Origin: a bacterium
Lineage (GTDB): Bacteria > SZUA-79 > Acidulodesulfobacterales > Acidulodesulfobacteraceae
Assembly (NCBI GenBank): GCA_021818985.1
Contig: JAKASO010000002.1
Location: 43,383 to 107,382, forward strand
Direction of reading: 5' to 3'
DNA length: 64,000 nucleotides
This document shows, piece by piece, positions 5,274 through 56,475 of this stretch (positions within the stretch are counted from its first letter, which is position 1; each line of letters starts with the position of its first letter). The notes beneath the pieces are model-generated. The model was not told where the DNA came from. It was given only the letters and a program-made list of their open reading frames with translations, and did not search any database. Made by a program: the position numbers and the translations under genes.

Positions 5274-6329
5274 ATGTTGTACTCAAAACTTGGCGATGCG
5301 GGGCTTAAGGTTTCAAGGCTTTGCTTTGGAACCATGACGTTTGGCTTTAAATTCAGGAATATCGGCGCCGTCGGACAAGATGATGCCGGCAAGATGGTTA
5401 AAAAGGCTTACGAATCCGGCATAAATTTTTTTGATACAGCCGATATATATTCCTTCGGGCAATCGGAGGAAATTTTAGGGAACTCGTTAAAAAAACTTAA
5501 GGTTCCGAGGGAGAAATTTGTCATCGCTACAAAGGTTCGTTCCCCTTTGAGCGAAGAGGCAATGAGCGGGGCCGGGGATGTAAACAATGCTGGACTTTCG
5601 AGAAAACACATAATAGAAGCCTGCAATAACAGTTTAAAAAGGTTAAAAACGGATTATATTGATCTTTATCAGGTGCACGGCTGGGACATGTCTACGGCAA
5701 TAGAAGAGACATTGAACGCCTTAAACGATCTTGTAAGGCAGGGAAAAGTGTTATATTTGGGCGTTTCAAACTGGACCGCAAGGCATATAATGAAAGCTTT
5801 GTATCTTGCAAAAGCCGGTAATTTAAGCAGGTTTATTTCGTTACAGGCATATTATTCCTTAGCGGGAAGAGATGTAGAGCATGAACTTTTGCCTTTATGC
5901 AAAGAAGAAGGGTTGGGCGTTCTTCCATGGTCTCCATTGTCCGGCGGTTTTTTAACCGGTAAATACACCCGTGAAAACCCTAACCCGATAGGTGCAAGAA
6001 GAAGCGAATTTAATTTTCCACCCGTGGACGAGAGGGTCTATAATGCCATAGACGTGTTAAAAGAATTGTCGAAAGAAAAAAATGTTTCAATCCCGCAAAT
6101 TGCTTTAAGCTGGCTTTTACATCAAGACGGCGTCAGCTCTGTAATAATTGGGGCGAATAAAATGCCCCAGTTAGAAGATAATCTTAAATCAATAGACGTT
6201 AAATTAACGGAAGATGAACTATCAAGGCTTTCTGATACGACAGCTCTCAAAAAGCTTTATCCCCAATGGATGGTGGAATGGCAGAATAAAAGGATATCGT
6301 TAGACCCGGGTGCATTGCCCCATTTATAA
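5274..6329 (+). CDS. Aldo/keto reductase family oxidoreductase
   Basis: 351 aa. FDTADIYS, DLYQVHGWD and LGVLPWSPL motifs typical of the AKR11/12-like family. Confidence 0.9.
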   Translation: MLYSKLGDAGLKVSRLCFGTMTFGFKFRNIGAVGQDDAGKMVKKAYESGINFFDTADIYSFGQSEEILGNSLKKLKVPREKFVIATKVRSPLSEEAMSGAGDVNNAGLSRKHIIEACNNSLKRLKTDYIDLYQVHGWDMSTAIEETLNALNDLVRQGKVLYLGVSNWTARHIMKALYLAKAGNLSRFISLQAYYSLAGRDVEHELLPLCKEEGLGVLPWSPLSGGFLTGKYTRENPNPIGARRSEFNFPPVDERVYNAIDVLKELSKEKNVSIPQIALSWLLHQDGVSSVIIGANKMPQLEDNLKSIDVKLTEDELSRLSDTTALKKLYPQWMVEWQNKRISLDPGALPHL

Positions 6330-43168: not shown

Positions 43169-44881
43169 ATGATTGCTTATTTTGTTATGGAATGCGCAAT
43201 TGATAATAATATGCCGACTTACAGCGGAGGTCTTGGAGTTCTTGCCGGAGACACACTTCAAAGTTTTGCCGATCTTGATGTCCCAGTTTCATGCGTTACT
43301 ATGCTATGGAAAAATGGTTTTATATCGCAAAAAATCTCAGAAGACGGAGTCCAATTCGACGGTATTCAGGATTGGGATCCTGACAAATATTTGAAACCGA
43401 CGGACATAAAAACTAAAATTCCACTGGGGGACGACGATGTTTTTATAACCGCATGGAAATACATAGTTAAGGGAATAAATGGCTATGAGATACCCGTATA
43501 TTTTCTTACTACCGATTTAGAAGAAAACAATGCCGAAGATAGAAAAATATGCGATAGGTTATACATTGGCAATAATATAATGAGGCTGAAACAGGAAATA
43601 GTTTTAGGCATAGGCGGATACGAGATCCTCAAAGCCATGAATTATGACCCTTATATATACCATATAAATGAAAGCCACTCCGCTTTTTTAATAACAAGTT
43701 TAATGAAAAATCTTGGCGATATAAATAAGTTAAGAGCGCAGGTCGTATTTACCACCCATACCCCTATTTCTGAGGCTTTTGACAGTTATAACATGCAGGA
43801 TGTTGTAAGTATGTTAAACAGGTATATAAATACAGATATTATAGATTCTATATATGGCAAAGAAGAAAACAAACTTAACCTGTCATGGCTTGCAATTGAA
43901 AACGCAAAAAATGTGGTGGCGGTTTCAAGAAAACATAAATATGTCTCTCAGAAGATCTTTGAAGGCTATAAGCTTAAATATGTAACAAATGGCATTCATC
44001 ATTTTAAATGGGCATCTGCCCATCATAAAATGCTTTATTCCAAATATATAAAAGGATGGGAGGAAGAGCCGTATTTATTAAGCAGGGTTGTTTCCATTCA
44101 CGATAACGAATTTATAAAAGCTCATGAGCTCGCTAAAAGCGACCTAATCGAAATGGTGAATTCTGAAACCGGTGTTTCTTTTACTCCGGAAAGCTTTACG
44201 ATAGGAATGGCAAAAAGAGTCACCCAGTATAAACGAAATAACCTTATATTGCATAACCCTGATAAACTCATTGAAATAGCTGAAAAAACCGGCGATATTC
44301 AAATGGTTTTTGCCGGCAAAACCCATCCTTTGGATAATATCGGCAAATCAATAATACAATCTATATACGACGCATCCCGTTATATAATGTCAAAAACAAA
44401 AAAGATAAGAATAGTCTTTATCGAAAATTTTGATATGCAAAAGGAAATTTTAATATTGGCTGGATCGGATCTGTGGCTTAATACCCCTACGAGGCCGTTA
44501 GAGGCTTCAGGAACAAGCGGCATAAAGGCATCTCTCAACGGAGTGCCGAGTTTTAGCGTTTATGACGGCTGGTGGTTGGAAGCTTGCAATAATGGAGTAA
44601 ACGGATGGGGAATAGGACCAAGACCTTCGTGGGAGGATCTGACACATTCATCCGACGAAGAAGATCTCGCCGATATTTACGATAAACTAAAATATATTAT
44701 ATTGCCGATGTTTTATGATTCTTACACTGATTATGTAAAGATAATGAAAACTGCTGTTTCGACAATTATCCCCTATTTCAATTCACACAGGATGGTTTCC
44801 GAATATATTACCGATTTATATTTAACTGCCATGATTCAACGCTATCAGGAAAATTGCAGAATTGGAATATACAATATTTGA
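43169..44881 (+). CDS. Alpha-glucan (glycogen/maltodextrin) phosphorylase, GT35 short form
   Basis: PTYSGGLGVLAGD N-terminus and EASGTSGIKA (PLP-lysine context). Confidence 0.88.
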   Translation: MIAYFVMECAIDNNMPTYSGGLGVLAGDTLQSFADLDVPVSCVTMLWKNGFISQKISEDGVQFDGIQDWDPDKYLKPTDIKTKIPLGDDDVFITAWKYIVKGINGYEIPVYFLTTDLEENNAEDRKICDRLYIGNNIMRLKQEIVLGIGGYEILKAMNYDPYIYHINESHSAFLITSLMKNLGDINKLRAQVVFTTHTPISEAFDSYNMQDVVSMLNRYINTDIIDSIYGKEENKLNLSWLAIENAKNVVAVSRKHKYVSQKIFEGYKLKYVTNGIHHFKWASAHHKMLYSKYIKGWEEEPYLLSRVVSIHDNEFIKAHELAKSDLIEMVNSETGVSFTPESFTIGMAKRVTQYKRNNLILHNPDKLIEIAEKTGDIQMVFAGKTHPLDNIGKSIIQSIYDASRYIMSKTKKIRIVFIENFDMQKEILILAGSDLWLNTPTRPLEASGTSGIKASLNGVPSFSVYDGWWLEACNNGVNGWGIGPRPSWEDLTHSSDEEDLADIYDKLKYIILPMFYDSYTDYVKIMKTAVSTIIPYFNSHRMVSEYITDLYLTAMIQRYQENCRIGIYNI

Positions 44882-44999
44882 TATTTGATAAACCATCTGA
44901 ACTCTAAATTGGGTTACCGGCATGAAATTGACGTTGAAACTTGCCTTCTGATATATATAATTATAACGATTTGACGGCAAAAGATCCGCAGTGTTAGAA

Positions 45000-45257
45000 A
45001 TGACCAAATACAAAGTTTCCGAAAATTTTACCTTGCACGGCGATGAAAACGGTTATTTGCTTTTTGATACCGTAAACGGCAGCATTTATAAATTAAATGA
45101 AATATCATTTAAGATAATATCGCTTATTGACGGAAACAGAACAGATCAAGAGATCAAGGAAATTATCTCGTCTGAATACAATGCTGGAATTGAAACTATT
45201 AGTAAGGATTTTGACGATCTTACAAAAATGCTTTTAGACAGGCACATAATATATTAA
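45000..45257 (+). CDS. PqqD-family (RRE-like) small protein
   Basis: Pattern GYLLFDTVNGSIYKLNEISFKIISLIDGNRTDQEIKEII...DFDDLTKMLLDRHII matches the PqqD peptide-chaperone fold. Confidence 0.6.
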   Translation: MTKYKVSENFTLHGDENGYLLFDTVNGSIYKLNEISFKIISLIDGNRTDQEIKEIISSEYNAGIETISKDFDDLTKMLLDRHIIY

Positions 45258-45326
45258 TATTAATTTGATAAAACTTTTTTATAAAAAATTTAAAAAATCC
45301 TGCAATCTGCTGTAATCTGTAATAAT

Positions 45327-46523
45327 ATGCAAAAATGGTTAAATAAAGATGTTCTTCTTATATCATTTTCCGCATTTTTTTCAGATCTTGGATATCACAC
45401 TGCAATTGCGCTATTTCCTATATTTTTAGTCATAACCCTTAAAGTGCCGGATTACGAATTCGGGTTTGCCAATGCTGTTGCATTTGGAGGGGGTGCGATA
45501 ATTGCATATTTTGGAGGCTTATTGGGTGATAAATACAGCTATAAATGGTTAGCGGTATCGGGAAATGCTTTTATCCCCCTTTTATCGCTTTTTGGTCTTG
45601 TAACAAGTCCGGTAATTGCTATTTTCCTTTTTTCAGGCGGGTGGTGGGCAAGAAATTTCAGGACACCCCCAAGAAGGGCTTTATTAGTTAGATCAACTTT
45701 TCCCGAAACCAGGGGCAAAGTATTCGGTTTTCTTCACATGCTTGATATCGGCGGTGGCATGATCTCAATCTTTACATTACTGAGCCTAATTTTAATTGGT
45801 TTAGGTTATACGCAAATTCTTTTACTGAGCGTTATACCTTTACTAATAGCAACCATACTTTTACTATTTACCGCTGATATAAAAGGACATTCAAATAATC
45901 CCGGTATAGCCGGTACAGCCGCTTCAAATTCAAATAAAGATGGCAAAGTCTTTTATACCCCTGCAAAAAAAAGTGCGTATAAAGGAATAATAATAGCTGC
46001 ATCTCTTTATGGTTTTAGCAGTTATGCCATCGGCTTTCCGATACTTACGATTGCTCAGAGATCAAACGATATACTTGGCATAGGTTCCTACGCTCTTTAC
46101 CTTGGCGTTTCTGCAGTTATAGGTTTTTGGATCGGATCTAAAAAGATGGACAGAGTAAAAACGCTTGGCATTCTCGGTTATTTATTATCCGGTTTTGGAA
46201 CTATAATGCTTGGATTGGCTTACTTTTTCCATCAAAGTCTATTTGTGTTTTACGTAGCGGTCGCTATACTTGGTTTTGCCCTGGGGATAATAGAGGTTAT
46301 AGAACCAACGCTGATTTCATTTCTAAAGGATATAAAAGATCTTGGTAAGGGAATGGGCTCTCTTACCGCATCAAGAAGCTTGGGAATATTTCTTGCAAAC
46401 TTAATAATGGGGTTTTTATATATATTTAATCCTCTTTATTCTTATACTTATGCTGGTCTTATATCAATAGCAGCGGCTATAATAGTTCTTTACTACGGCA
46501 AGGCATATAGTTTAAAAATATAG
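45327..46523 (+). CDS. MFS transporter
   Basis: About 12 predicted hydrophobic helices with a central cytoplasmic loop. Confidence 0.8.
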   Translation: MQKWLNKDVLLISFSAFFSDLGYHTAIALFPIFLVITLKVPDYEFGFANAVAFGGGAIIAYFGGLLGDKYSYKWLAVSGNAFIPLLSLFGLVTSPVIAIFLFSGGWWARNFRTPPRRALLVRSTFPETRGKVFGFLHMLDIGGGMISIFTLLSLILIGLGYTQILLLSVIPLLIATILLLFTADIKGHSNNPGIAGTAASNSNKDGKVFYTPAKKSAYKGIIIAASLYGFSSYAIGFPILTIAQRSNDILGIGSYALYLGVSAVIGFWIGSKKMDRVKTLGILGYLLSGFGTIMLGLAYFFHQSLFVFYVAVAILGFALGIIEVIEPTLISFLKDIKDLGKGMGSLTASRSLGIFLANLIMGFLYIFNPLYSYTYAGLISIAAAIIVLYYGKAYSLKI

Positions 46524-46572
46524 AAAGCCTTAGAAGTATTGCAAGCCGGTGCCGATTATTATAACCAATTTT

Positions 46573-47004
46573 TTATGCAATTATTATCGTTTCTATAAGC
46601 GGTTTATTTTTTTTATCTGGCATCAGATAGCTTTTTATATCAGATACATCGCCCGGCTCTTTTCCTTTTACCGATAAGATCATATAAGAATAATAAGGCC
46701 ACGATGCGTCAACGTCGTAAGATGACGGTATGGCAGGGTAATTCGGATGCGAATGGTAAAATCCCACAATCTCGATATTCCCGGCTCGCGATAATTTATC
46801 TATTGCAAGCATGTCTTTAGGTTCTATCTCGAATTTATCCCATGCTATTTTTTTATATCTGTTATTTGCAGGAAAGACCGCCGTTATAGTTTTATTATCG
46901 CCTTCTATAATACCTAAAATAGCGCCGCATGCTTCGTAAGGAAAAATTTCGGCTGCATGCTTTTTTATTATATCGAGTTTATCGTTACTTATAATTATCG
47001 GCAT
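46573..47004 (-). CDS. JAMM/MPN+ metalloprotease (Mec+/HcyD/QbsD-like)
   Basis: EACG...HSHPNYPAIPSSYD (E...HxH...S..D JAMM motif). Start trimmed to the ATG at 47004, 7 nt after the upstream stop. Confidence 0.8.
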   Translation of the reverse strand: MPIIISNDKLDIIKKHAAEIFPYEACGAILGIIEGDNKTITAVFPANNRYKKIAWDKFEIEPKDMLAIDKLSRAGNIEIVGFYHSHPNYPAIPSSYDVDASWPYYSYMILSVKGKEPGDVSDIKSYLMPDKKNKPLIETIIIA

Positions 47005-47011
47005 TTTTTTC

Positions 47012-47941
47012 TTAGAGTATTCCGGTTGACAAATATCTTGAACCTGTATCCGGAAGCACCGTAACATAATTTCCTTTATATTTTTCGGATAACTTGGAAA
47101 TGGCATATATATTTGCACCCGAAGAAAATCCGCACAAAAGCCCTTCTTCTTTTATAAGCCTTTTAAGCATCGCATAACTTCCCCCGGTATCTATTTTAAT
47201 ATAGTCGTCAATTATCTTTGTGTGGTCAAAACCTTTAAAGTTGAAAGAATAATTATATTTCCATCCCTCTATGCCGTGCATTTCATTATCGGGAACTACG
47301 GCAATAACTTTTATTTTTTCGTTATATTCTTTAAGTCTTTTGCCTATCCCAAGAATAGTTCCCCCGGTTCCTATTCCGGTTGCAAAATAGGCGATATTGC
47401 CCCCGGTTTGATTTATTATCTCGATCGCGGTGGTTTCATAGTGGGATAACGGATTATTAGGGTTATTGTACTGATCGGGCATATAATATATTTTGCTGCT
47501 GCCTTTATTGTATTCATCAAGCGATTTTTTGATAGCTCCATCATGGCTTTCTTCGGCAGGCGTAAGTACAAGTTCTGCGCCATAAAGTTTGATTATTTTT
47601 TTTCTTTCTTCGCTCATATTTGAAGGGGCATAAAGTTTAACGTTAATTCCCAAATATGCGCCAATCATAGCATAAGATATTCCGGTGTTTCCTGAAGTCG
47701 AATCAAGGATGGTCATGTTTTCAGTCAGAATTTCTTTTCCAATAGCATCTTTAATCATGTAAAGAGCGGGTCTGTCTTTTATGGAACCGCCGGGATTTTG
47801 AGATTCGACCTTGGCGTATAACTTACATCCGCTTTGATAAGGAATTATATGATTTAGAAGGCATATTTGCGTTGCCCCTATGCTCGAAAATACACTGAAC
47901 GCCGATAAACCTTTTTTAAAGTTTTCTAAATTATCGTTCAT
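47012..47941 (-). CDS. Cysteine synthase family PLP enzyme (CysK/CysM-like)
   Basis: NPGGSIKDRPA (PLP lysine), TSGNTGISYA and GIGTGGT motifs. Confidence 0.9.
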   Translation of the reverse strand: MNDNLENFKKGLSAFSVFSSIGATQICLLNHIIPYQSGCKLYAKVESQNPGGSIKDRPALYMIKDAIGKEILTENMTILDSTSGNTGISYAMIGAYLGINVKLYAPSNMSEERKKIIKLYGAELVLTPAEESHDGAIKKSLDEYNKGSSKIYYMPDQYNNPNNPLSHYETTAIEIINQTGGNIAYFATGIGTGGTILGIGKRLKEYNEKIKVIAVVPDNEMHGIEGWKYNYSFNFKGFDHTKIIDDYIKIDTGGSYAMLKRLIKEEGLLCGFSSGANIYAISKLSEKYKGNYVTVLPDTGSRYLSTGIL

Positions 47942-47997
47942 CTTAACTCCGTCCAGCCAGGGCTGACGCAGGCCTTTTAAATTGTAGCGGCTCGCGG

Positions 47998-48270
47998 CTA
48001 CTTCTTCCCGCCTTTTTCGACAATAATCTCGTAGTCTGTATCGTTGATCTTGTTAATAGACAGCACCTTATGTCCTTGGTCTGTCATTGAACGGGGGACG
48101 TTTCTTATAGCCGGTTCATAATCTACGATGATCCGCAGAATTTCGCCCGGTTTTATTTTTTCTAATGCAAGTTTCGATCTTACAAACGTGAAAGGACATA
48201 TTTCGCCTTTAATATTCAATTCTTTAGCGTAGTTGTCAGTCCGGTCGTTTTCTTTAAAGAGCCCATCCAT
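47998..48270 (-). CDS. TusA/SirA-family sulfurtransferase
   Basis: GEICPFTFVRSKLALEKIKPGEILRIIVD with the conserved active Cys. 90 aa. Confidence 0.8.
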   Translation of the reverse strand: MDGLFKENDRTDNYAKELNIKGEICPFTFVRSKLALEKIKPGEILRIIVDYEPAIRNVPRSMTDQGHKVLSINKINDTDYEIIVEKGGKK

Positions 48271-48322
48271 TTTAGTTTCTCCTACTAAACTTATCTTTAT
48301 GCCTATCTTTTACCCGTTTGTT

Positions 48323-49132
48323 TTATTCATGATGGTATAATTCACAAAACTCCTCGTAATCTATCAGATCTAAGATATTTGGATTTTCGCCGCATAAAGG
48401 ACAGCACTTATCCTTTCGCAATTTCATTTCCGTAAACTTCATATCTAATGCGTCATATATTAAAAGTCGTCCATTCAAAGTATTGCCGACGCCGAGAGTG
48501 ATCTTTATTGCTTCATTAGCCTGAATGGCGCCTATTACGCCAGGTAGAACTCCAAGAACGCCCGCCTCCTGACAGCTCGGTACAAGTCCGGGGGGCGGAG
48601 GCGTTGAAAAAAGACATCTGTAACACGGGCCTTTATCTGGCAAAAAAACGGTTACCTGTCCTTCAAACCTGAAGATTGAACCGTATACTAACGGCTTATT
48701 CATAAAATGGCAGGCATCGTTTATTAAATACCTTGCCGGAAAATTATCCGTTGCATCTACTATAACGTCGTAATCTTTAATAAGTTCTTTAATATTTGCG
48801 GAATCTATCTTGTCTTTGTACGTTATGACTTTAACATCGGGATTTATCCTCTCTATCGAATCCTTTGCCGAATCAACCTTGTATCTGCCGACATCTTTAG
48901 TTCCATGCCAGATCTGCCTCTGCAGGTTCGATAAATCAACAATATCAAAATCTACTATACCGAGTGTGCCTATACCTGCGGCGCCGAGATAATACCCGCA
49001 TGGGGCTCCAAGACCGCCGGCCCCTATTAGCAGTATCTTTGACGATAACAGCTTTTCCTGTCCTTCGCCGCCGACCTCCGGCAGAATTATATGTCTTGCA
49101 TATCTTTTTATCTGTTCTTCCGTAAATTCCAA
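48323..49132 (-). CDS. MoeB/ThiF/HesA-family E1-like adenylyltransferase
   Basis: RYARHIILPEVGGEGQEKL, LIGAGGLGAP and DNFPARYL motifs. Two CxxC pairs (CYRC, CPLC). Confidence 0.9.
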   Translation of the reverse strand: MEFTEEQIKRYARHIILPEVGGEGQEKLLSSKILLIGAGGLGAPCGYYLGAAGIGTLGIVDFDIVDLSNLQRQIWHGTKDVGRYKVDSAKDSIERINPDVKVITYKDKIDSANIKELIKDYDVIVDATDNFPARYLINDACHFMNKPLVYGSIFRFEGQVTVFLPDKGPCYRCLFSTPPPPGLVPSCQEAGVLGVLPGVIGAIQANEAIKITLGVGNTLNGRLLIYDALDMKFTEMKLRKDKCCPLCGENPNILDLIDYEEFCELYHHE

Positions 49133-49174
49133 AATACCTCCTTGCCGCGTAAATAAATTAATTATATTAATTGT

Positions 49175-49690
49175 TTATTCTACTACATCAAGCACGATAG
49201 GTTCCACGGTTATGCCTTTGGATTCAAAAAATTTCACGGCTTTTTCTATTTCTGCCGGTTCACCTTCGAGTTCAAGGGCTATTATACCGATATCATTAGA
49301 GATGCTTGCACTTCTGATATTAGTTATAACGTTAAAATTTTTTCCAACTTGATAAATAATTGGTTCTTTTATTACTTCCTGTGGGTAGTTTAGGTAAAAT
49401 TTTTTTCTTTCGAAAGCGCCTCCGGCAATTGCGGGAATAATAGAAATTGTATCGCCGTCTTTAACGCTGGAGTTTATATTGTCTAAAAATCTGATATCTT
49501 CGTCATTAAGATAGACATTTACGAATCTCCTGATTTGGCTATTTTGTTCACATATCCTTTCTTTGATTCCTGCATAATTGTTTTCTAAATTGTCTATTAT
49601 TTCAATGATTGTGGCGCCGGTCGTTTCGACCTCAGACTTTCCGTTGGTTAAGGTTCTTAAAGGTGTGGGTATTCTAACGGTTATTGGCAT
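49175..49690 (-). CDS. MoaD/ThiS-like sulfur-carrier domain fused to a C-terminal NIL domain
   Basis: Residues 1-91 end in DGDTISIIPAIAGG, a typical carrier C-terminus. The Gly-Gly codons are at 49418-49423. Residues 92-171 resemble the NIL domain (NIRSASISNDIGIIALELEG...ESKGITVE). Confidence 0.7.
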   Translation of the reverse strand: MPITVRIPTPLRTLTNGKSEVETTGATIIEIIDNLENNYAGIKERICEQNSQIRRFVNVYLNDEDIRFLDNINSSVKDGDTISIIPAIAGGAFERKKFYLNYPQEVIKEPIIYQVGKNFNVITNIRSASISNDIGIIALELEGEPAEIEKAVKFFESKGITVEPIVLDVVE

Positions 49691-49705
49691 TTGATTCTCC
49701 TTAAA

Positions 49706-50959
49706 TTAATTTTTTTTGTTCTTTTTTTCGCGAATTTTACTAAGTATTTTTTCAAACTCTTCAAGGTTTGGACTGATGACATCCGGTTCTTTGAGTTTTC
49801 CATGCAGGGCTTCAAGAGTTTTTAATCCGTTGCCAGTTATGGCAAGCACGGTTGTTTCATTTTTATTTATATTGCCGTTTTTAATTAATTTTTTTGCAAC
49901 GGCAATCGTTACCCCGCCGGCAGTTTCGGTAAATATGCCCTCCGTTCTTGCAAGAAGTTTCATTCCTTCGATTATTTCTTCATCGGTTGCGTCTTCGCCG
50001 TAGCCGCCCGTATTTTTCATCAAATCTGCAGCATAATATCCATCCGCAGGATTGCCTATCGCAAGGGATTTTGCAATAGTGTCCGGTGTTTTAACCGGCT
50101 TAATGAATTCCCTTTTTTCTTTAACCGTCGAGGTTATCGGGTTACATCCGGTTGCCTGGGCTCCGAAAATCCTTGTATGTTTTTTTTCGATCAATCCAAC
50201 GTATTCGAATTCTTCTATGGCTTTGCCTACTTTTGTGATCAAAGAGCCGCCCGCCATAGGCACGACGATATTGTCCGGGGTTTTAAAACCAAGCTGTTCG
50301 AGCATTTCAAAAGTAAGCGATTTTGAACCTTCGGCATAATAAGGCCTGAGATTTATATTGACAAATCCCCAGTTGTGTTTGCCAGCAATTTCGGTGCAAA
50401 GCCTGTTAACCTTGTCGTAGCTTCCCTCGATCTTGATTAAATTAGTATTATATATAAGGGTGCCGAGGACTTTGCCTATTTCAAGGTTTGCCGGAATGAA
50501 AACAAAGCTTTCATAGCCAGAAGAAGCGGCTAAAGCGGCAACGGCGTTTGCAAGGTTACCTGTTGAAGCGCAGGCGACGATTTTAAAACCAAACTCTCTT
50601 GCTTTGGCTATTGCAACGGACACTACCCTGTCTTTGAACGATAAAGTCGGGAAATTAACGGCATCGTTTTTAATATATATTTCTTTTACGCCAAGAGCTT
50701 TTGCAAGGTTATCTGCCTTGACGAGAGGGGTAAATCCGACATCTTTTCCGATTTTGATTTCGCCTTTTATAGGCAAAAACTCCCTGTATCGCCACATATT
50801 AGGTTGTCTCGATCTGATCTTTTCCACGCTTATATTTTGTTTGATCATATCATAATCGTAATTTACTTCAAGCGGTCCAAAGCAGTAATCGCAAACATAA
50901 AGCGGGCTATCAGGGTATTCTTTGCCGCATTCCCGGCATTTTAATCCTTTTACGAACAT
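49706..50959 (-). CDS. Threonine-synthase-family PLP enzyme with an N-terminal zinc ribbon
   Basis: CRECG...CDYC ribbon, PTLSFKDR PLP lysine, ASTGN motif. First gene after the SAM riboswitch. Confidence 0.85.
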   Translation of the reverse strand: MFVKGLKCRECGKEYPDSPLYVCDYCFGPLEVNYDYDMIKQNISVEKIRSRQPNMWRYREFLPIKGEIKIGKDVGFTPLVKADNLAKALGVKEIYIKNDAVNFPTLSFKDRVVSVAIAKAREFGFKIVACASTGNLANAVAALAASSGYESFVFIPANLEIGKVLGTLIYNTNLIKIEGSYDKVNRLCTEIAGKHNWGFVNINLRPYYAEGSKSLTFEMLEQLGFKTPDNIVVPMAGGSLITKVGKAIEEFEYVGLIEKKHTRIFGAQATGCNPITSTVKEKREFIKPVKTPDTIAKSLAIGNPADGYYAADLMKNTGGYGEDATDEEIIEGMKLLARTEGIFTETAGGVTIAVAKKLIKNGNINKNETTVLAITGNGLKTLEALHGKLKEPDVISPNLEEFEKILSKIREKKNKKN

Positions 50960-51068
50960 TTTTTCTCCTGCAAATTTAGAATTTATTAGTTTTATTAGTT
51001 ATTTTTTATTATTTTTAGTTTAATTATAATTTAATAAATATATTTAAGAATATATTTAAGAAATAATG

Positions 51069-51112
51069 TAAAAAAAACCTCTTCTCTGGAAATATCTAAA
51101 GAAGAGGTTTTT
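51069..51112 (-). terminator. Intrinsic terminator forming the expression platform of the SAM-I riboswitch
   Basis: 10-bp stem AACCTCTTCT (51076-85) / AGAAGAGGTT (51100-09), followed on the minus strand by a U-run. Confidence 0.7.
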
Positions 51113-51124
51113 TAAACTCTTATC

Positions 51125-51227
51125 TTCTTATCTTCCAGGAAATTATCCTGCGGGAGTTAGCACCGAATATTGCCTCCGGTTGCTGCGGTTTCGTACGGGC
51201 CCATCCCTTCACCGCTCTTGATAAGAA
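51125..51227 (-). promoter_or_regulatory. SAM-I (S-box) riboswitch aptamer
   Basis: The minus strand reads TTCTTATCAAGAGCGGTGAAGGGATGGGCCCGTACGAAACCGCAGCAACCGGAGG...TTCGGTGCTAACTCCCGCAGG...GGAAGATAAGAA. This matches the S-box core: P1 closure, the GA-motif kink-turn, and the GGTGCTAA.TCC junction. Confidence 0.9.
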
Positions 51228-51286
51228 ATATTATCTTATGAATTTCGAATTTCAATTATCATTCAATAATTAGCCGATTTTTAAAT

Positions 51287-51315
51287 ATTTTACATTGTTG
51301 TTTTATATATGTCAA
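51287..51315 (-). promoter_or_regulatory. Sigma-70-like promoter candidate for the riboswitch operon
   Basis: On the minus strand: TTGACA (51315-51310), a 17-nt spacer, then TAAAAT (51292-51287). It lies about 55 nt upstream of the aptamer. Confidence 0.45.
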
Positions 51316-51482
51316 TGCAAATTTATAGCCTGTGCCAATTTATAGCCTGTGTGCCGGCTATTAAAATGTTTATTGCAAAACAATTACTTAAAAGGATAAT
51401 TATGCCGAATAAATAATATAAGATTTAAAATATAAAAATAATAATAATAAAGAACGTTAAGATATGCCGTTTTTTAAAAATA

Positions 51483-52226
51483 ATGCGATTTTTTAGATTA
51501 AAAAATGTTCATATAATACTTACTGGTTTCTTTATTATGGCGGTTTCATCTATGCTGTTCGGATGTGTTCCTTATATTATAGGAGGGTATTATCCCAAAT
51601 CCGCCTATCGCCCTCCGGCGTATTATCCACCAAAGTACTTAGCTCACAATGTAGAAGAAGGTATTGCTTCATGGTATGGACCGGGTTTTCAGGGCAGGCC
51701 GACCGCAAGCGGTCAGATATACAATATGTATGATCTGACGGCCGCTTCTAAGACGCTTCCGTTAGATACTTATGCTATGGTTACCAATCTTGAAAACAAA
51801 AGGAGCATAGAGGTATATGTTAATGACAGGGGACCGTATTACGGAGACAGGATAATTGATCTTTCCTATGCGGCTGCACGGGCATTGCACATGCTTGGAC
51901 CGGGTACGGCATTAGTAAAGGTTCAGTATCTCGGGCCTTCGCACGTTTCCGTCCGTATGGTAAGCGGCTTTGGAACAAAATATCTGCCGCCTGTAGCTGG
52001 CTACACGCTCCAGTTTGCCGCTTACACCTCAAAAGCCCAGGCGCTCAAAAAGGTAAAAAAGATGGATAAACTTGTCCCGGGTGTTCATATCGTAACAAAA
52101 ACTGTTAGAAGGACATTTTATTACAAAGTTGTCTTCGGCAGATTTGCCAGTTTGAAAAAAGCATACCTGTTTGCAAAAGTTATTGCAAAAAATGGTATAG
52201 ATATATATATTACAAAGCTGGGTTGA
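51483..52226 (+). CDS. rlpA: Septal ring lytic transglycosylase RlpA-family protein (DPBB and SPOR domains)
   Basis: GIASWYGPGFQGRPTASGQIYNMYDLTAA...VNDRGPY. C-terminal SPOR-like YTLQFAAYTSKAQA. Confidence 0.85.
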   Translation: MRFFRLKNVHIILTGFFIMAVSSMLFGCVPYIIGGYYPKSAYRPPAYYPPKYLAHNVEEGIASWYGPGFQGRPTASGQIYNMYDLTAASKTLPLDTYAMVTNLENKRSIEVYVNDRGPYYGDRIIDLSYAAARALHMLGPGTALVKVQYLGPSHVSVRMVSGFGTKYLPPVAGYTLQFAAYTSKAQALKKVKKMDKLVPGVHIVTKTVRRTFYYKVVFGRFASLKKAYLFAKVIAKNGIDIYITKLG

Positions 52227-52285
52227 TTATTAATTAATTAATATCTTAAATTGAAAAGGAGAATATTTAAACCGGTGTTTTTTTC

Positions 52286-53041
52286 ATGAAAATAGTTGCT
52301 TTTATACCTGCAAGATTTGCATCCACGAGGTTTGAAGGTAAACCTCTTGCGCCTATTCTGGGAAAACCTATGATCAGGCATGTTTATGAAGGCGTATCGC
52401 AATCGAAGACGCTTTCCGAGATTATCATAGCTACGGAAGACGAAAGAATATATAATGAGGCAAAGAGCTTTGGTGCTAAGGTCGTTATGACGTCTGCTTC
52501 GCATTTATCGGGTACGGATCGTATAATAGAAGCCTCTAAAGACATAGAGGCGGATATAATTTTGAATATACAGGGTGATGAGCCTCTTGTAAACATTGAA
52601 ATCATCAATGCGCTGGCGACGCCTTTTAAAGAGGATAAAAGTGTTCTATATACAAGCGTTAAGACGCCGATATATTCTTACGAAGAATTTATTGACCCGA
52701 ATAATGTCAAAGTTGTAGTGAATAAAGACGATTTCGGACTGTATTTTTCGAGAAGTCCTATACCCTTCGACAGAAATTATAATCCTGAAGAATTTAAAGA
52801 TAAAAAAATATTGTTTGGATATAAGCATCTGGGGTTTTACGGCTATAGAAAAGATTTTCTTTTAACATTCGAAAAGCTTCCGCAGTCTTATTTAGAGAAA
52901 AAGGAGATGCTTGAGCAGTTGAGGGCGATCGAGAACGGTTATAAAATAAAGGTCGTTACCGTAAGCTTTTCGACGATACCGGTTGATGTTCCATCCGATA
53001 TAAAAAAGGTTGAAAATTATCTTTTAAATTTGTATAATTAA
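52286..53041 (+). CDS. kdsB: 3-deoxy-manno-octulosonate cytidylyltransferase
   Basis: IPARFASTRFEGKPL and NIQGDEPL motifs. Confidence 0.93.
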   Translation: MKIVAFIPARFASTRFEGKPLAPILGKPMIRHVYEGVSQSKTLSEIIIATEDERIYNEAKSFGAKVVMTSASHLSGTDRIIEASKDIEADIILNIQGDEPLVNIEIINALATPFKEDKSVLYTSVKTPIYSYEEFIDPNNVKVVVNKDDFGLYFSRSPIPFDRNYNPEEFKDKKILFGYKHLGFYGYRKDFLLTFEKLPQSYLEKKEMLEQLRAIENGYKIKVVTVSFSTIPVDVPSDIKKVENYLLNLYN

Positions 53042-53161
53042 TATTTTACGGCTATATTTTATACAATATTATAAATATAAATATTATGATTATAGCTTAC
53101 GTAAAAAAATCGGCAAATTTATTAATTTAATTTTATAAATTTAAAAGGGGTTAAAATTAAG

Positions 53162-53374
53162 ATGAAGCAAGATATTCATCCGCAATATTTTAAGACAAAA
53201 GTTAAGTGCGCCTGCGGCAATGAGTTTGTTACAGGAAGTACCGTAGAAGAGATTCATGTCGATATCTGTTCCAAATGCCATCCATTTTATACAGGCAAGC
53301 AAAAGTTTGTGGATAGTGCTGGAAGGATCGAAAAATTCAATAAGCGTTACAATTTAAGTAACATTAAGAAATAA
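53162..53374 (+). CDS. rpmE: 50S ribosomal protein L31 (Zn-ribbon type)
   Basis: MKQDIHPQY...CACG...[13 protein letters not shown]. Confidence 0.95.
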
Positions 53375-53457
53375 CATGAAGAAATAACATTAAGAAATAA
53401 CACGAAAGATTAATTTTATATTTTATTTATTTTAGCTGTGTTGACCCCTTTTATTAA

Positions 53458-54174
53458 ATGGTAAGACTAATTAATTACACCATTAATCCGGAAATAACCA
53501 TAGCTACTGCTGCAAGGCTGTGTTACAGTTCTTATGATATTTCAAAGATAGAAAAGGATTTTACGGGTTCGAACGGATTGGAAAAAGCAAGAAAACTTAT
53601 AAAGAAAATCAGAATTTCAGGACATGATTCGGTGCTGGAGCATGCCGGTTTCACTTTCGGGGTTGAAAAATTATCGAGAAGCGCTTCCCATCAATTAGTC
53701 AGGCACCGCATAGCATCATATTCTCAAAGAAGCCAAAGATACGTCAAAGAAACAAAACCGCAGTTTGTTATCCCGGATTCAATAGCGAATGACGCCGGGC
53801 TTTCCGATATGTTTAATAAGCTTATAAACGATATATTTTCTTTATACGGCTACTTTATCGAAAAAGGTATCCCTGCCGAAGACGCCAGGTATATTTTGCC
53901 TAATGCAACGGAAACGCAGCTCGCCTTTACCATGAATGCCCGCGAACTTTTACATTTTCTTAAATTAAGGGGGTGTGAAAGGGCACAGTGGGAGATAAGG
54001 CAGCTGGCTAAAGATGTATTTAAACTTGTTTATCCTATTGCTCCTTCTGTTTTTCAAGGAGCGGGTCCGGCGTGTGTCAAGGGTAACTGTTCGGAAGGCG
54101 GGTTTACATGCGGAAGACCCTTAGAGATCAGAGCGGAATGGTTAAATATGGCTAAGCTAGCCGCCCACTCTTAA
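53458..54174 (+). CDS. thyX: FAD-dependent thymidylate synthase
   Basis: ThyX motif RHRIASYSQRSQRY. Confidence 0.92.
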   Translation: MVRLINYTINPEITIATAARLCYSSYDISKIEKDFTGSNGLEKARKLIKKIRISGHDSVLEHAGFTFGVEKLSRSASHQLVRHRIASYSQRSQRYVKETKPQFVIPDSIANDAGLSDMFNKLINDIFSLYGYFIEKGIPAEDARYILPNATETQLAFTMNARELLHFLKLRGCERAQWEIRQLAKDVFKLVYPIAPSVFQGAGPACVKGNCSEGGFTCGRPLEIRAEWLNMAKLAAHS

Positions 54175-54212
54175 GAATTTAAGGAGATAGATTAATAATA
54201 TTAAAATAAAGT

Positions 54213-55367
54213 ATGCTTTTAAATAAAAAATATAATAATGCCTTCAACAATAAAGTAATGGAAAATTATTCTGTAACCGAAGGCGAGGCGCATTTTTTAA
54301 AGCTTGATGATATTACGGTAAAAAAATGCCTTGATCTAAAAGAGGAAGTAAAATCCATTTATGTTGAGATCCAAAAAATCAACGCGCAAAGGTTTAGCGA
54401 ATCTTCCAAAGAGCTTATAAGAAGGTTTAATGCCATTAAAAAGATCGCCGATTCTTTTGATGAATATAATAAAATACTTGGCGAAATTCAAGACCTTGAG
54501 AATTTAAGCAAAAAAGAGACCGATAATGAACTTTTGATTCTTGAGATCGAAGAAATTAATTTTTTGAAGACAAAGGCTTTAAAAATTGCCGAAACCGTCA
54601 GAGAATATTTCTATCCGAAAGACCCAGATGCCGATAAAGATATTTTACTTGAGATAAGGGCGGGTACGGGAGGCGAAGAAGCTGCGCTTTTTGCGCTTGA
54701 CCTGTTTAAAATGTATAATAAATATGCGTTGATTAAAAATTTTAAATTTGAAGTAATATCCACAAGCCCTTCTGTTTCTGGCGGGTTAAAAGAGGCCATC
54801 GTTTCCGTTAAAGGTAAAAATGTTTACAGGCTTTTGAAACATGAAAGCGGGGTTCACAGGGTTCAAAGGATACCGGCTACGGAAACGCAGGGCAGGGTTC
54901 ATACCTCTGCTTCCACAGTTGCGGTCATGCCTGAAGCCGAAGAGGTTGATCTTAAAATAGCACCCGAAGACTTAAGAATAGACGTATATAAATCTTCCGG
55001 CCACGGCGGACAGAGCGTAAATACTACAGATTCCGCGGTAAGGATCACTCATCTGCCCACCGGGCTTGTAGTAACATGTCAGGACGAAAAATCTCAGCAT
55101 AAGAATAAAGCCAAGGCTTTAAGGATACTTAGATCACGGCTTTTAAGCAGGATTGAGGAGGCTAAAAAGAACGAAGAGGCTAAAAATAGAAAAAGCATGG
55201 TAGGAAGCGGCGACAGAAGCGAAAAGATAAGAACCTATAATTTTCCTCAGGGCAGGATTACCGACCACCGTGCCGGCATTACCCTGCATAAATTAAATTC
55301 CATTATGGACGGCAACTTAGACGATCTTTTAACGCCTCTATCCGAATATTTTGAATCTAACAGATAA
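54213..55367 (+). CDS. prfA: Peptide chain release factor 1
   Basis: The PAT tripeptide (IPATETQGRVHTS) indicates RF1. GGQ motif (SSGHGGQSVNTTDSAVRITH). The start may instead be the internal ATG at 54258. Confidence 0.92.
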   Translation: MLLNKKYNNAFNNKVMENYSVTEGEAHFLKLDDITVKKCLDLKEEVKSIYVEIQKINAQRFSESSKELIRRFNAIKKIADSFDEYNKILGEIQDLENLSKKETDNELLILEIEEINFLKTKALKIAETVREYFYPKDPDADKDILLEIRAGTGGEEAALFALDLFKMYNKYALIKNFKFEVISTSPSVSGGLKEAIVSVKGKNVYRLLKHESGVHRVQRIPATETQGRVHTSASTVAVMPEAEEVDLKIAPEDLRIDVYKSSGHGGQSVNTTDSAVRITHLPTGLVVTCQDEKSQHKNKAKALRILRSRLLSRIEEAKKNEEAKNRKSMVGSGDRSEKIRTYNFPQGRITDHRAGITLHKLNSIMDGNLDDLLTPLSEYFESNR

Positions 55368-55494
55368 GCTTTACAAACAGGTTTTTTTAAGAGTGTTACC
55401 CTTCTAAATAATTATTTATTATTAATTATTATAGATATATAGTATTGTAGATATATAGAAATACAATGACCCTCTCTATCTTACTTATTATTTA

Positions 55495-56475
55495 ATGGAG
55501 AGCGGTTCGCTAAGCTATAAATTGAAATATAATCTTCTTGAATTTCAGCGGCAGTCCATTCTTGAATTAACCAAATCAGGCGCTAGCCTTTTAAAGGATT
55601 CCGGGCTTGTAAACCCTTTTAAAGAGTCTTTGCTGTTTATGTCTTATGCCTTAAAAATGCCGTTGGAACAGGTTATTCTAAACTATGAAAATAAAATAGA
55701 CAATAAGGGGTATAAGATATACGCCCACTGCATTAAAAGAAGGGCAAAGAAAGAACCGTTCGCATATATTACAGGTAAAAAAGAATTTTACTCGTTAGAA
55801 TTTTTTGTAAATAAACACGTCCTTATTCCCAGACCGGAGACGGAAACCCTTGTTTCCGAAGGACTTAAAGAAATTGACAGGTTAAAAGGCAAAAAAAAGA
55901 AGGTTATCGTGATAGATCTGGGGACAGGTTCGGGGGCTATTGCCGTATCTCTTGCAAAAAATGCAAATAATGTTTTTGTTTATGCTGCCGATAAGACTTA
56001 TAGAGTGTTAAAAGTTGCCGATAAGAATATCAGGCTAAATAATATTGAAAATAGAGTCCGGCTTGTGTATTTTGATATTCTAAACCGGAATATATGCTGG
56101 TATAATGAAACTATGGGATTTTTTGATCAAAATCTTTATCTTTATAATTTTGATATTATTATTTCAAATCCGCCTTATATAAGAACCGGTGAATTGAAGA
56201 AATTGGATCCGGGGGTCGGGTTATACGAACCTCTTTCAGCCCTTGACGGCGGTGCTGACGGACTTAAGTTCTATAAAAAAATATTTGATATTGTTAAGCT
56301 ATTTAAAAAAAGCTTCAGCCTGCTTTTGGAAATAGATGCCGAAGATGCCGAAAGGATTGAAAATTTGTATAAACTGAAGTTTCAAGATAAAGACAATAAA
56401 ATAATCGAATTTATCAAAGACATGTCAGACAGAATAAGGGTGGTAAAAATAACTTATGAAAAAAATGGTTATTGA
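55495..56475 (+). CDS. prmC: Release-factor glutamine N5-methyltransferase
   Basis: DLGTGSGAI and NPPY (ISNPPYI) motifs. Located downstream of prfA. Confidence 0.85.
   Translation: MESGSLSYKLKYNLLEFQRQSILELTKSGASLLKDSGLVNPFKESLLFMSYALKMPLEQVILNYENKIDNKGYKIYAHCIKRRAKKEPFAYITGKKEFYSLEFFVNKHVLIPRPETETLVSEGLKEIDRLKGKKKKVIVIDLGTGSGAIAVSLAKNANNVFVYAADKTYRVLKVADKNIRLNNIENRVRLVYFDILNRNICWYNETMGFFDQNLYLYNFDIIISNPPYIRTGELKKLDPGVGLYEPLSALDGGADGLKFYKKIFDIVKLFKKSFSLLLEIDAEDAERIENLYKLKFQDKDNKIIEFIKDMSDRIRVVKITYEKNGY

Follow-up and report, generated by a model that had tools for sequence, protein, structure and literature searches.

How can a sulfur-carrier protein function when its Gly-Gly lies in the middle of the polypeptide? 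This question is raised by an open reading frame (ORF) on the minus strand of the window, the term used here for the whole 64,000-nucleotide stretch of DNA that was analysed (contig JAKASO010000002.1 of assembly GCA_021818985.1, from a bacterium of the family Acidulodesulfobacteraceae). The ORF, located at 49175..49690, encodes a fusion of 171 amino acids, identified from the reading frame, Pfam matches, homologues, an AlphaFold2 model and Foldseek comparisons, in which a ThiS domain of the CysO/MetO type is followed by a NIL domain, as found in the MetN methionine importer. The Gly-Gly occupies residues 90-91 and 80 residues lie downstream of Gly91, so the primary product does not end in Gly-Gly and a free Gly-Gly would be generated only by proteolysis. 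The explanation that we favour, and consider likely, is that the fusion unites two neighbouring genes of an operon of the MetM/MetO type, headed by an S-adenosylmethionine (SAM) riboswitch and extended by a CysM branch, one gene specifying the CysO/MetO-type carrier and the other a NIL accessory subunit, and that the joint product is cleaved into these two parts.

The two domains are clearly delimited within a single unbroken ORF, which begins with ATG and whose coordinates include the stop codon. In Pfam, ThiS (PF02597) matches residues 5-91 with an E value of 9.4e-15 and 55 bits against a cut-off of 22.5, and NIL (PF09383) matches residues 100-163 with an E value of 1.1e-13 and 51.2 bits against a cut-off of 24. 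The carrier domain, defined by PF02597 and by its identity to CysO, comprises residues 1-91 (49418..49690, minus strand) and ends with PAIAGG, where Gly90-Gly91, encoded at 49418-49423 (plus strand, gcctcc; coding strand, GGA GGC), constitutes the proposed site of cleavage and thiocarboxylation. It is followed by a linker of residues 92-96 (AFERK; 49403..49417, minus strand), recognized from the family alignment and as coil in the AlphaFold2 model, which leads into a conserved basic stretch, and by the NIL domain of residues 97-171 (49178..49402, minus strand), assigned by PF09383 and by the Foldseek match to the MetN C2 domain. The AlphaFold2 model, built from 120 homologues and compared with the PDB by Foldseek, has a mean predicted local distance difference test (pLDDT) value of 88.8 with each domain confident, a coil over about residues 87-93 and the last three residues disordered, and its predicted template modelling (pTM) score of 0.52 means that the mutual orientation of the two domains is not confident. 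The carrier domain is 54% identical to the CysO structure 4n6e_B with a template modelling (TM) score of 0.93, and 46% identical to 3dwg_C with a TM score of 0.91. The NIL half is predicted to adopt a beta-alpha-beta-beta-alpha-beta fold over residues 94-164 and superposes on the MetN C2/NIL domain 3tui_C with a root-mean-square deviation of 1.1 Å over 74 columns, with further Foldseek matches to the isolated NIL domains 3dhx, 2qsw, 2qrr and 3ced. A first-pass annotation, made from the sequence alone, had described a MoaD/ThiS domain with an internal Gly-Gly at these very codons and 80 C-terminal residues resembling NIL; the ORF and PF02597 confirm the former, and the PF09383 match and the MetN C2 fold in the model the latter. 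The profile search and the structure prediction that it proposed thus gave two domains above their curated cut-offs and two confident folds, one CysO-like and the other MetN C2-like.

The same annotation named a sequencing frameshift or a missed stop codon between two separate genes as the finding that would undo it, and such an assembly artefact is extremely improbable. It is true that in close relatives the stop and start codons of the two genes overlap by 4 nucleotides, such that a single indel could switch the state, and that one public annotation, that of locus L001, holds the NIL half only; against this, the window ORF is unbroken, a 100% identical protein (P0001) is encoded on 2 contigs of other assemblies, the fused ORF recurs in the independent assemblies L007, L008, L009 and others, and thousands of fused homologues of 167-190 amino acids come from independent samples. 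A search with the fusion returned 5334 homologues at E <= 1e-3, of which the best 120 are all two-domain proteins of 167-189 amino acids, and the closest named ones, from Candidatus Acidulodesulfobacterium, share 81-85% identity. In L001 itself (GCA_048541835.1, Ca. Acidulodesulfobacterium sp. H_13) the full 171-residue fused ORF is intact at 5740-6255 with its carrier half left unannotated, and P0122 from this locus was therefore rejected as a natural split, only its public annotation being short (84 amino acids, 'NIL domain-containing protein'). Two further candidates for additional fusion types were likewise set aside: P0192, in which a MetM fragment precedes ThiS-NIL, is a probable assembly chimera, and P0279 (MetM-NIL) is a probable read-through, the NIL part's own methionine following an Arg/Gly-rich stretch.

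Conservation around the junction bears directly on how the precursor may be used. Throughout the 120 fusions the PAIAGG motif is invariant, with P86, A87, A89, G90 and G91 all unchanged. The 2-8 residues between it and the basic stretch, after which the conserved part of NIL begins, differ in both number and sequence. An invariant motif with a variable segment behind it is the pattern expected of a cleavage site followed by a spacer. The opposite end of the protein is conserved as well: Glu171 (49178-49180), the very last residue, is invariant in the 120 fusions and closes a conserved motif, ...VEPIxxDV(I/V)E, shared by the majority of stand-alone NIL proteins, and this conserved free C-terminus of NIL may be a docking element.

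The arrangement of NIL and carrier was recorded in a census of 84 non-duplicate loci, comprising the best 80 of about 600 genome matches (one genome per species) and 4 metagenome loci, in which ORFs were called within +/-8 kb around the carrier and classified by phmmer against six window proteins. Gly-Gly is present in the carriers of all 84 loci. NIL is fused to the carrier in 10 of them, encoded by a separate gene in 51 and absent within 8 kb in 23; the carrier Gly-Gly is followed by no residue in 20 loci, by a tail of 1-24 residues in 54 and by a NIL domain (80-99 residues) in 10. The 61 loci that combine NIL with a carrier are spread over many phyla and include members of Nitrospirota, Verrucomicrobiota, Planctomycetota, Aquificota, Zetaproteobacteria and Poribacteria, and a search with the NIL half alone retrieved stand-alone NIL proteins of 57-88 amino acids. 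In the split orthologues L002 and L004-L006, NIL has its own ribosome-binding site and start codon. Thus, the Nitrospirota locus L004 encodes in succession a MetM-like enzyme, a ThiS protein ending in AIAGGC, NIL (preceded by a ribosome-binding site of its own and starting with ATG), ThiF and JAB; L005 (Sulfurihydrogenibium) a MetM-like enzyme, ThiS ending in AIAGGNK and NIL; L006 ThiF, a MetM-like enzyme, ThiS ending in AIAGGR, a CysM-like enzyme and NIL as the last gene; and in L002, where ThiS ends in AIAGGKF, the stop codon overlaps the NIL start by 4 nucleotides. NIL is not even adjacent to the carrier in L006, L057, L061, L070 and L084, and the carrier ends exactly at Gly-Gly in 14 of the 51 split loci, for example in the Verrucomicrobiota L016, L019, L021, L024, L026, L028 and L029. 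On a rough neighbour-joining tree of carrier and NIL sequences the fused or split state has changed at least 5 times, and a split clade (L002, L043, L045, L067) is nested among fused forms. The fusion is hence a recurrent joining of two neighbouring genes. As to their company, a MetM-like gene lies directly 5' of the carrier in 52 of the 84 loci, and one is present in 49 of the 61 loci with NIL versus 12 of the 23 loci without it.

This distribution also offers an answer to how the internal Gly-Gly would be exposed. The operon of the window ends with a gene for a JAMM/MPN+ metalloprotease, and the occurrence of such a gene in the census follows the extension of the carrier: it is found in none of the 20 loci with Gly-Gly-ending carriers (nor is it nearby in split loci of this kind such as L016, L019, L021, L024, L026, L028 and L029), in 21 of the 54 with a tail of 1-24 residues and in 9 of the 10 with a fusion. 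Fisher's test for fused carriers versus those without a tail gives p = 7e-7, a value that overstates independence since the loci are related. The lone fused locus without a JAMM gene, L020, is represented by just 2.1 kb of upstream sequence, and its relatives L023 and L025 have JAMM 3-5 kb upstream. Because stand-alone carriers stop either at Gly-Gly or 1-24 residues after it, because JAMM tracks the extension and because PAIAGG is invariant, cleavage by the JAMM protease after G91 appears likely from sequence comparison; the ready interconversion of fused and split forms likewise means that the same working products are to be expected from both. Precedent for removal of a whole domain is provided by natural MoaD-MoaE fusions, which JAMM proteases cut (PMC8832034).

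The first-pass annotation had anticipated obligatory cleavage by the JAMM enzyme of the operon, and comparative evidence from the tails, the PAIAGG motif and the 9/10 versus 0/20 occurrence of JAMM speaks for it; in the survey of fusions and JAMM genes that it recommended, 10 of 84 loci are fused and 9 of these carry JAMM. Its statement that JAMM-processed carriers bear only one or a few extra residues was incomplete in view of the MoaD-MoaE fusions (PMC8832034) and of the Thermus protein 1V8C, which has an internal Gly-Gly followed by a domain.

Would the fusion alternatively act uncleaved, as one working polypeptide whose ThiS-like domain is no thiocarboxylate carrier, or with the true carrier encoded elsewhere? 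This is very unlikely. None of the 120 close homologues and none of the 84 loci lacks the Gly-Gly, the closest split relatives possess ordinary carriers ending in Gly-Gly plus a short tail, and the operon encodes an E1-like enzyme, a JAMM protease and two sulfhydrylases dependent on pyridoxal 5'-phosphate (PLP), with no second carrier; moreover, AlphaFold2 is confident for both domains of the one chain, as a single working polypeptide would have it, but the pTM of 0.52 denotes no confident packing between them. What does lend this alternative some substance is the existence of P0191 (179 amino acids), a divergent ThiS-like-NIL fusion without Gly-Gly (...EVLPGPRAARKRVYLTF), possibly a non-cleavable derivative.

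If the precursor is cleaved, as we favour, the question becomes what the NIL part does. N124 and A128 of the NIL half are invariant in the family and align with N295 and A299 of E. coli MetN, although overall the NIL subfamily has low similarity to the MetN sequence (phmmer E 0.25-1.6). In MetN, the N295A substitution abolishes binding of L-methionine, and A299 pairs across the sheet of the C2 dimer (PMC6233128). By analogy, the conserved equivalents of N295 and A299 suggest an accessory subunit with methionine or homocysteine as its ligand, and a dimeric subunit of this kind is the most economical and most likely reading of NIL. Since NIL is kept as a separate gene beside carriers that already end in Gly-Gly, it is not merely a pro-domain, and because it is separate in 51 of 61 loci and also occurs fused to JAMM and in tandem, it is a pathway component in its own right. 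Several fusions that arose independently, to the carrier, to JAMM and to NIL itself, tie it to the pathway. Fusions of NIL to JAMM are represented by L077, P0251 (Prok-JAB plus NIL) and P0276. NIL-NIL tandems of 142-185 amino acids number 11 among the best 150 cluster representatives of the NIL subfamily and fit a dimeric working unit.

Several observations accompany these arrangements. One genome of Poribacteria, together with at least one further lineage, has NIL at the C-terminus of JAMM, and in relatives JAMM and NIL are adjacent separate genes (L077 8263-9072; L047, L049 8209-9039). Examples of the tandem NIL-NIL proteins are P0175, P0177, P0190 and P0194.

The proposal of the first-pass annotation for this domain was different, namely that NIL is a regulated leaving group: methionine or SAM bound to NIL of the precursor would block or permit the JAMM cut and thereby exert feedback on carrier maturation. 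The presence of equivalents of the methionine-binding residues N295 and A299, a cleavage site separated from the first NIL strand by no more than 2-5 residues, where conformation or dimerisation of NIL could affect access, and the JAMM gene in 9 of 10 fused loci all agree with such ligand gating. It is nonetheless improbable and is not supported as the main role of NIL, since the domain is encoded separately in 51 of 61 loci, with 14 of these 51 having a Gly-Gly-ending carrier and hence nothing to mature, since it lies away from the carrier in L006, L057, L061, L070 and L084 or is fused to JAMM instead (L077), and since fused and split states switch repeatedly. The conserved role of NIL is therefore not that of a leaving group, a function that could at most be an addition where carrier and NIL are fused. 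As such an extra, ligand control of cleavage in fused lineages is possible, and the fusion can be explained without it.

For NIL as an accessory subunit, two roles are possible, feedback regulation of the pathway or recognition of a carrier-homocysteine adduct for hydrolysis by JAMM. A broader version holds that NIL is an overlooked and widely conserved third component of the route and a dimeric methionine/homocysteine sensor that controls the pathway post-translationally, whether free, fused to carrier or JAMM, or in tandem; this we put forward tentatively, with less confidence than the gene-joining explanation itself. In its specific form, NIL may recognise the homocysteine moiety of the carrier-homocysteine adduct and present the adduct to JAMM.

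The operon itself provides the setting in which both halves of the fusion would operate. On the minus strand it is ordered as a promoter-like site, a SAM-I riboswitch, and genes for a ThrC-like enzyme, ThiS-NIL, ThiF, TusA, a CysM-like enzyme and JAMM, such that the E1-like enzyme, TusA and the MetM-like and CysM-like PLP enzymes are all co-encoded with the carrier, and the fusion is the only carrier gene among them. The promoter-like site (TTGACA, 17-nucleotide spacer, TAAAAT; 51287..51315, minus strand) is a consensus match only, at 11 of 12 positions, and lies 5' of the riboswitch aptamer (51125..51227, minus strand), which matches RF00162 with 82.3 bits against a gathering score of 44.4 (E 1e-18); a simple scan of the stretch separating the aptamer from the first gene revealed no riboswitch terminator. 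SAM-I riboswitches also precede the MetM-like gene in L002, L007, L009, L012 and L016, and the arrangement of a ThrC homologue adjoining the carrier under a SAM riboswitch recurs in other phyla. In the window, this homologue (49706..50959, minus strand) is a PLP enzyme with an N-terminal Cys4 zinc ribbon (PALP E 2e-68), and because it scores 282 bits on the thrC model TIGR00260, annotation would call it threonine synthase; it is proposed here to be MetM-like, that is, a homocysteine synthase consuming the carrier thiocarboxylate. In the Nitrospirota loci L030, L034, L035, L036, L039 and L040, a shorter second PLP enzyme of 355-363 amino acids, nearer to the MetM-like than to the CysM-like protein, is encoded just 3' of NIL.

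Downstream of the fusion, the ThiF/MoeB-type E1-like adenylyltransferase (48323..49132, minus strand; Pfam ThiF E 2e-85, MoeB/MoeZ/UbaA-like in NCBIfam) has no rhodanese domain and is followed by a TusA/SirA-type sulfurtransferase (47998..48270, minus strand; Pfam TusA E 2e-20), likely the persulfide donor standing in for that domain. The co-occurrence of rhodanese-less E1 proteins with SirA was noted in the survey of prokaryotic ubiquitin-like systems by Iyer et al. 2006 (PMC1779556). Two side observations concern the sulfur supply: in split relatives a sulfite-reductase-like protein (NIR_SIR plus 4Fe-4S; L002 4414-5373) is encoded between the MetM-like gene and TusA, which suggests that sulfite reduction is coupled directly to the loading of the carrier, and in the Zetaproteobacteria L051, L054, L055 and L079 (Mariprofundus-type) proteins of 779-792 amino acids with a TusA-like segment are encoded 3' of ThiF at the end of the operon. 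The next gene in the window encodes a CysM/CysK-like PLP sulfhydrylase (47012..47941, minus strand; PALP E 3e-57, NCBIfam cysKM 287 bits, under the equivalog cut-off), possibly the second consumer of the carrier thiocarboxylate in a cysteine branch. The JAMM/MPN+ metalloprotease at the 3' end (46573..47004, minus strand; Prok-JAB E 8e-18) retains the intact motif E-x-C-G ... H-S-H-P-x7-S-x2-D, as read from its translation. Its longest ORF (46573-47118) begins with GTG at 47118 and overlaps the CysM-like gene by ~107 nucleotides; the ATG at 47004 is the more probable start and gives 143 amino acids and a 7-nucleotide gap after the CysM-like stop codon, orthologues having 133-154 amino acids. 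In the surroundings of the operon (window 43169-56475), the gene order is as in L001, on the opposite strand, and the common flanking genes encode RlpA/SPOR-like and KdsB-like proteins, ribosomal protein L31, ThyX, RF-1 and PrmC; the window thus probably stems from a relative of Ca. Acidulodesulfobacterium.

These components can be arranged into a putative sequence of events. Since Gly91 is not its last residue, the primary product would not yet serve as a carrier. Cutting by JAMM after Gly91 would then yield the carrier (residues 1-91) and free NIL (residues 92-171) in a 1:1 ratio, whereupon ThiF would adenylate the carrier and TusA would supply the sulfur to form the thiocarboxylate. MetM would use this thiocarboxylate with O-phosphohomoserine to produce homocysteine, the CysM-like enzyme would use it to produce cysteine, and carrier-amino-acid adducts would probably be hydrolysed by JAMM too. 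Released NIL, by analogy with MetN C2, would most likely form dimers, take methionine or homocysteine as its ligand and modulate or assist the pathway.

Certain points weigh against this scheme. Of the 54 short-tailed loci, 33 have no JAMM gene within +/-8 kb, and the linker from G91 to the first NIL strand measures about 2-5 residues, with access for the protease being assumed. The ThrC-like enzyme is assigned to MetM on the strength of its genomic context. Finally, NIL is absent from 23 of the 84 loci, 12 of which contain a MetM-like gene, and it is therefore not obligatory for the chemistry.

As to what is new, the pathway, the trimming of carriers by JAMM and cleaved carrier fusions are already known, the ThiS-NIL two-domain architecture is already present in the precomputed Pfam assignments of protein databases, and the finding overturns no known principle. 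No description of a ThiS-NIL precursor, or of NIL as a conserved component of the pathway, was found in a literature search, most subscription journals being outside its reach. NIL thus looks like an overlooked part of the MetM/MetO route. The route was first described in 2024 and is still entering pathway-prediction tools. Such genes currently go by names like 'MoaD family protein', 'molybdopterin synthase sulfur carrier subunit', 'FeS-binding protein', 'methionine transport ATPase subunit' and 'threonine synthase'. The fusion furthermore represents a clean test system for JAMM processing of a carrier precursor with release of a folded partner, and in this it parallels, in bacteria, the precursors in which ubiquitin is fused.

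How, then, does this operon compare with systems already described? It matches the MetM/MetO route of Streptomyces albulus (Hasebe et al. 2024, as relayed in the GapMind 2026 preprint and in PMC12172450), in which O-phosphohomoserine is converted to homocysteine by means of a thiocarboxylate. In these accounts its parts are MetM (a ThrC homologue), the carrier MetO, the JAMM protease Mec and the E1 enzyme MoeZ, with a SAM riboswitch 5' of metM; they also state that MetM is often misannotated as threonine synthase and that Mec trims the residues after the Gly-Gly of MetO. Judged by these secondary sources, both systems combine a ThrC homologue beside a ThiS/MoaD carrier with a SAM riboswitch, a MoeZ/ThiF-type E1 and a JAMM, but the window fusion has a whole 80-residue NIL domain after Gly-Gly, its E1 is devoid of rhodanese and paired with TusA, and a CysM-like enzyme shares the operon. 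NIL is not among the four proteins given for the Streptomyces route in these secondary accounts. Two Streptomyces loci, L081 and L082, were considered as a metM-metO reference and discarded, as they appear to be CysO-CysM-type clusters.

With the CysO-CysM-Mec+ system of M. tuberculosis and the CysO of Amycolatopsis, the window operon shares a carrier 46-54% identical and the presence of a CysM-like sulfhydrylase and a JAMM. The solved CysO chains 4n6e_B (90 amino acids) and 3dwg_C (93 amino acids) end at Gly-Gly, whereas here an 80-residue domain follows. The CysO-CysM-Mec+ system is not known to include a SAM riboswitch, a ThrC-like enzyme or a NIL protein. HcyS of the Wolinella HcyS-HcyD-HcyF-MetY system and QbsE of QbsE/QbsD have one or two residues after Gly-Gly, which are trimmed by the JAMM of the operon. 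Tails of this HcyS/QbsE-like kind are present in the split orthologues (GG-C, GG-R, GG-NK and GG-KF), in contrast to the folded domain of the fusion.

For the fusion as such, a close parallel is provided by MoaD-MoaE precursors, exemplified by Deinococcus DR2607 with DRJAMM, SAMP1-MoaE with HvJAMM1 and M. tuberculosis MoaX (PMC8832034). There, as is proposed here, the carrier is the N-terminal part of a two-domain precursor with a JAMM cut after Gly-Gly, and both products work, the released domain being a pathway partner and not waste (PMC8832034). Those precursors differ in serving molybdopterin synthesis and in that the function of MoaE is known, as opposed to the putative role of released NIL. 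A similar layout is seen in Thermus thermophilus 1V8C (168 amino acids), in which ...VAGG is internal and a domain of ~75 residues comes after it, and whose Foldseek alignment covers both domains. Its C-terminal domain belongs to PF09189 and not NIL, and its gene lies beside one for aldehyde:ferredoxin oxidoreductase and not beside a MetM-like gene; 1V8C was accordingly rejected as a solved structure of a ThiS-NIL fusion and is an analogue, not an orthologue. In Thermus sp. CCB_US3_UF1 (L087 5001-5561), a 92-residue MoaD ending in VAGGGWRA and a separate DUF309 gene stand beside the aldehyde:ferredoxin oxidoreductase gene. With MoaD-PF09189 in one species and separate MoaD and DUF309 in the other, Thermus thus offers a second instance of fusion and fission involving a carrier.

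The NIL half, in turn, has counterparts in two other systems of methionine metabolism. With MetN C2 it shares the Pfam family, the predicted fold and, in invariant form, the counterparts of N295 and A299 from the dimer interface that binds methionine; unlike in MetN, NIL occurs here without the ATPase of the ATP-binding cassette (ABC) transporter, and its ligand binding and dimerisation are putative. In the DUF39 route to homocysteine, a NIL-ferredoxin (MA1822 / DvMF_0262) is genetically required (PMC5764234). That route differs from the window operon in its partner enzyme DUF39, its ferredoxin domain and its lack of a sulfur-carrier protein, and no NIL-ferredoxin of the MA1822 type is found among the closest NIL-subfamily representatives checked; common to the DUF39 route and the window operon is that both tie NIL to the making of homocysteine. 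If NIL were indeed a methionine/homocysteine sensor, a common ligand logic would connect its use in the MetN importer, the DUF39 route and the MetM/MetO route.

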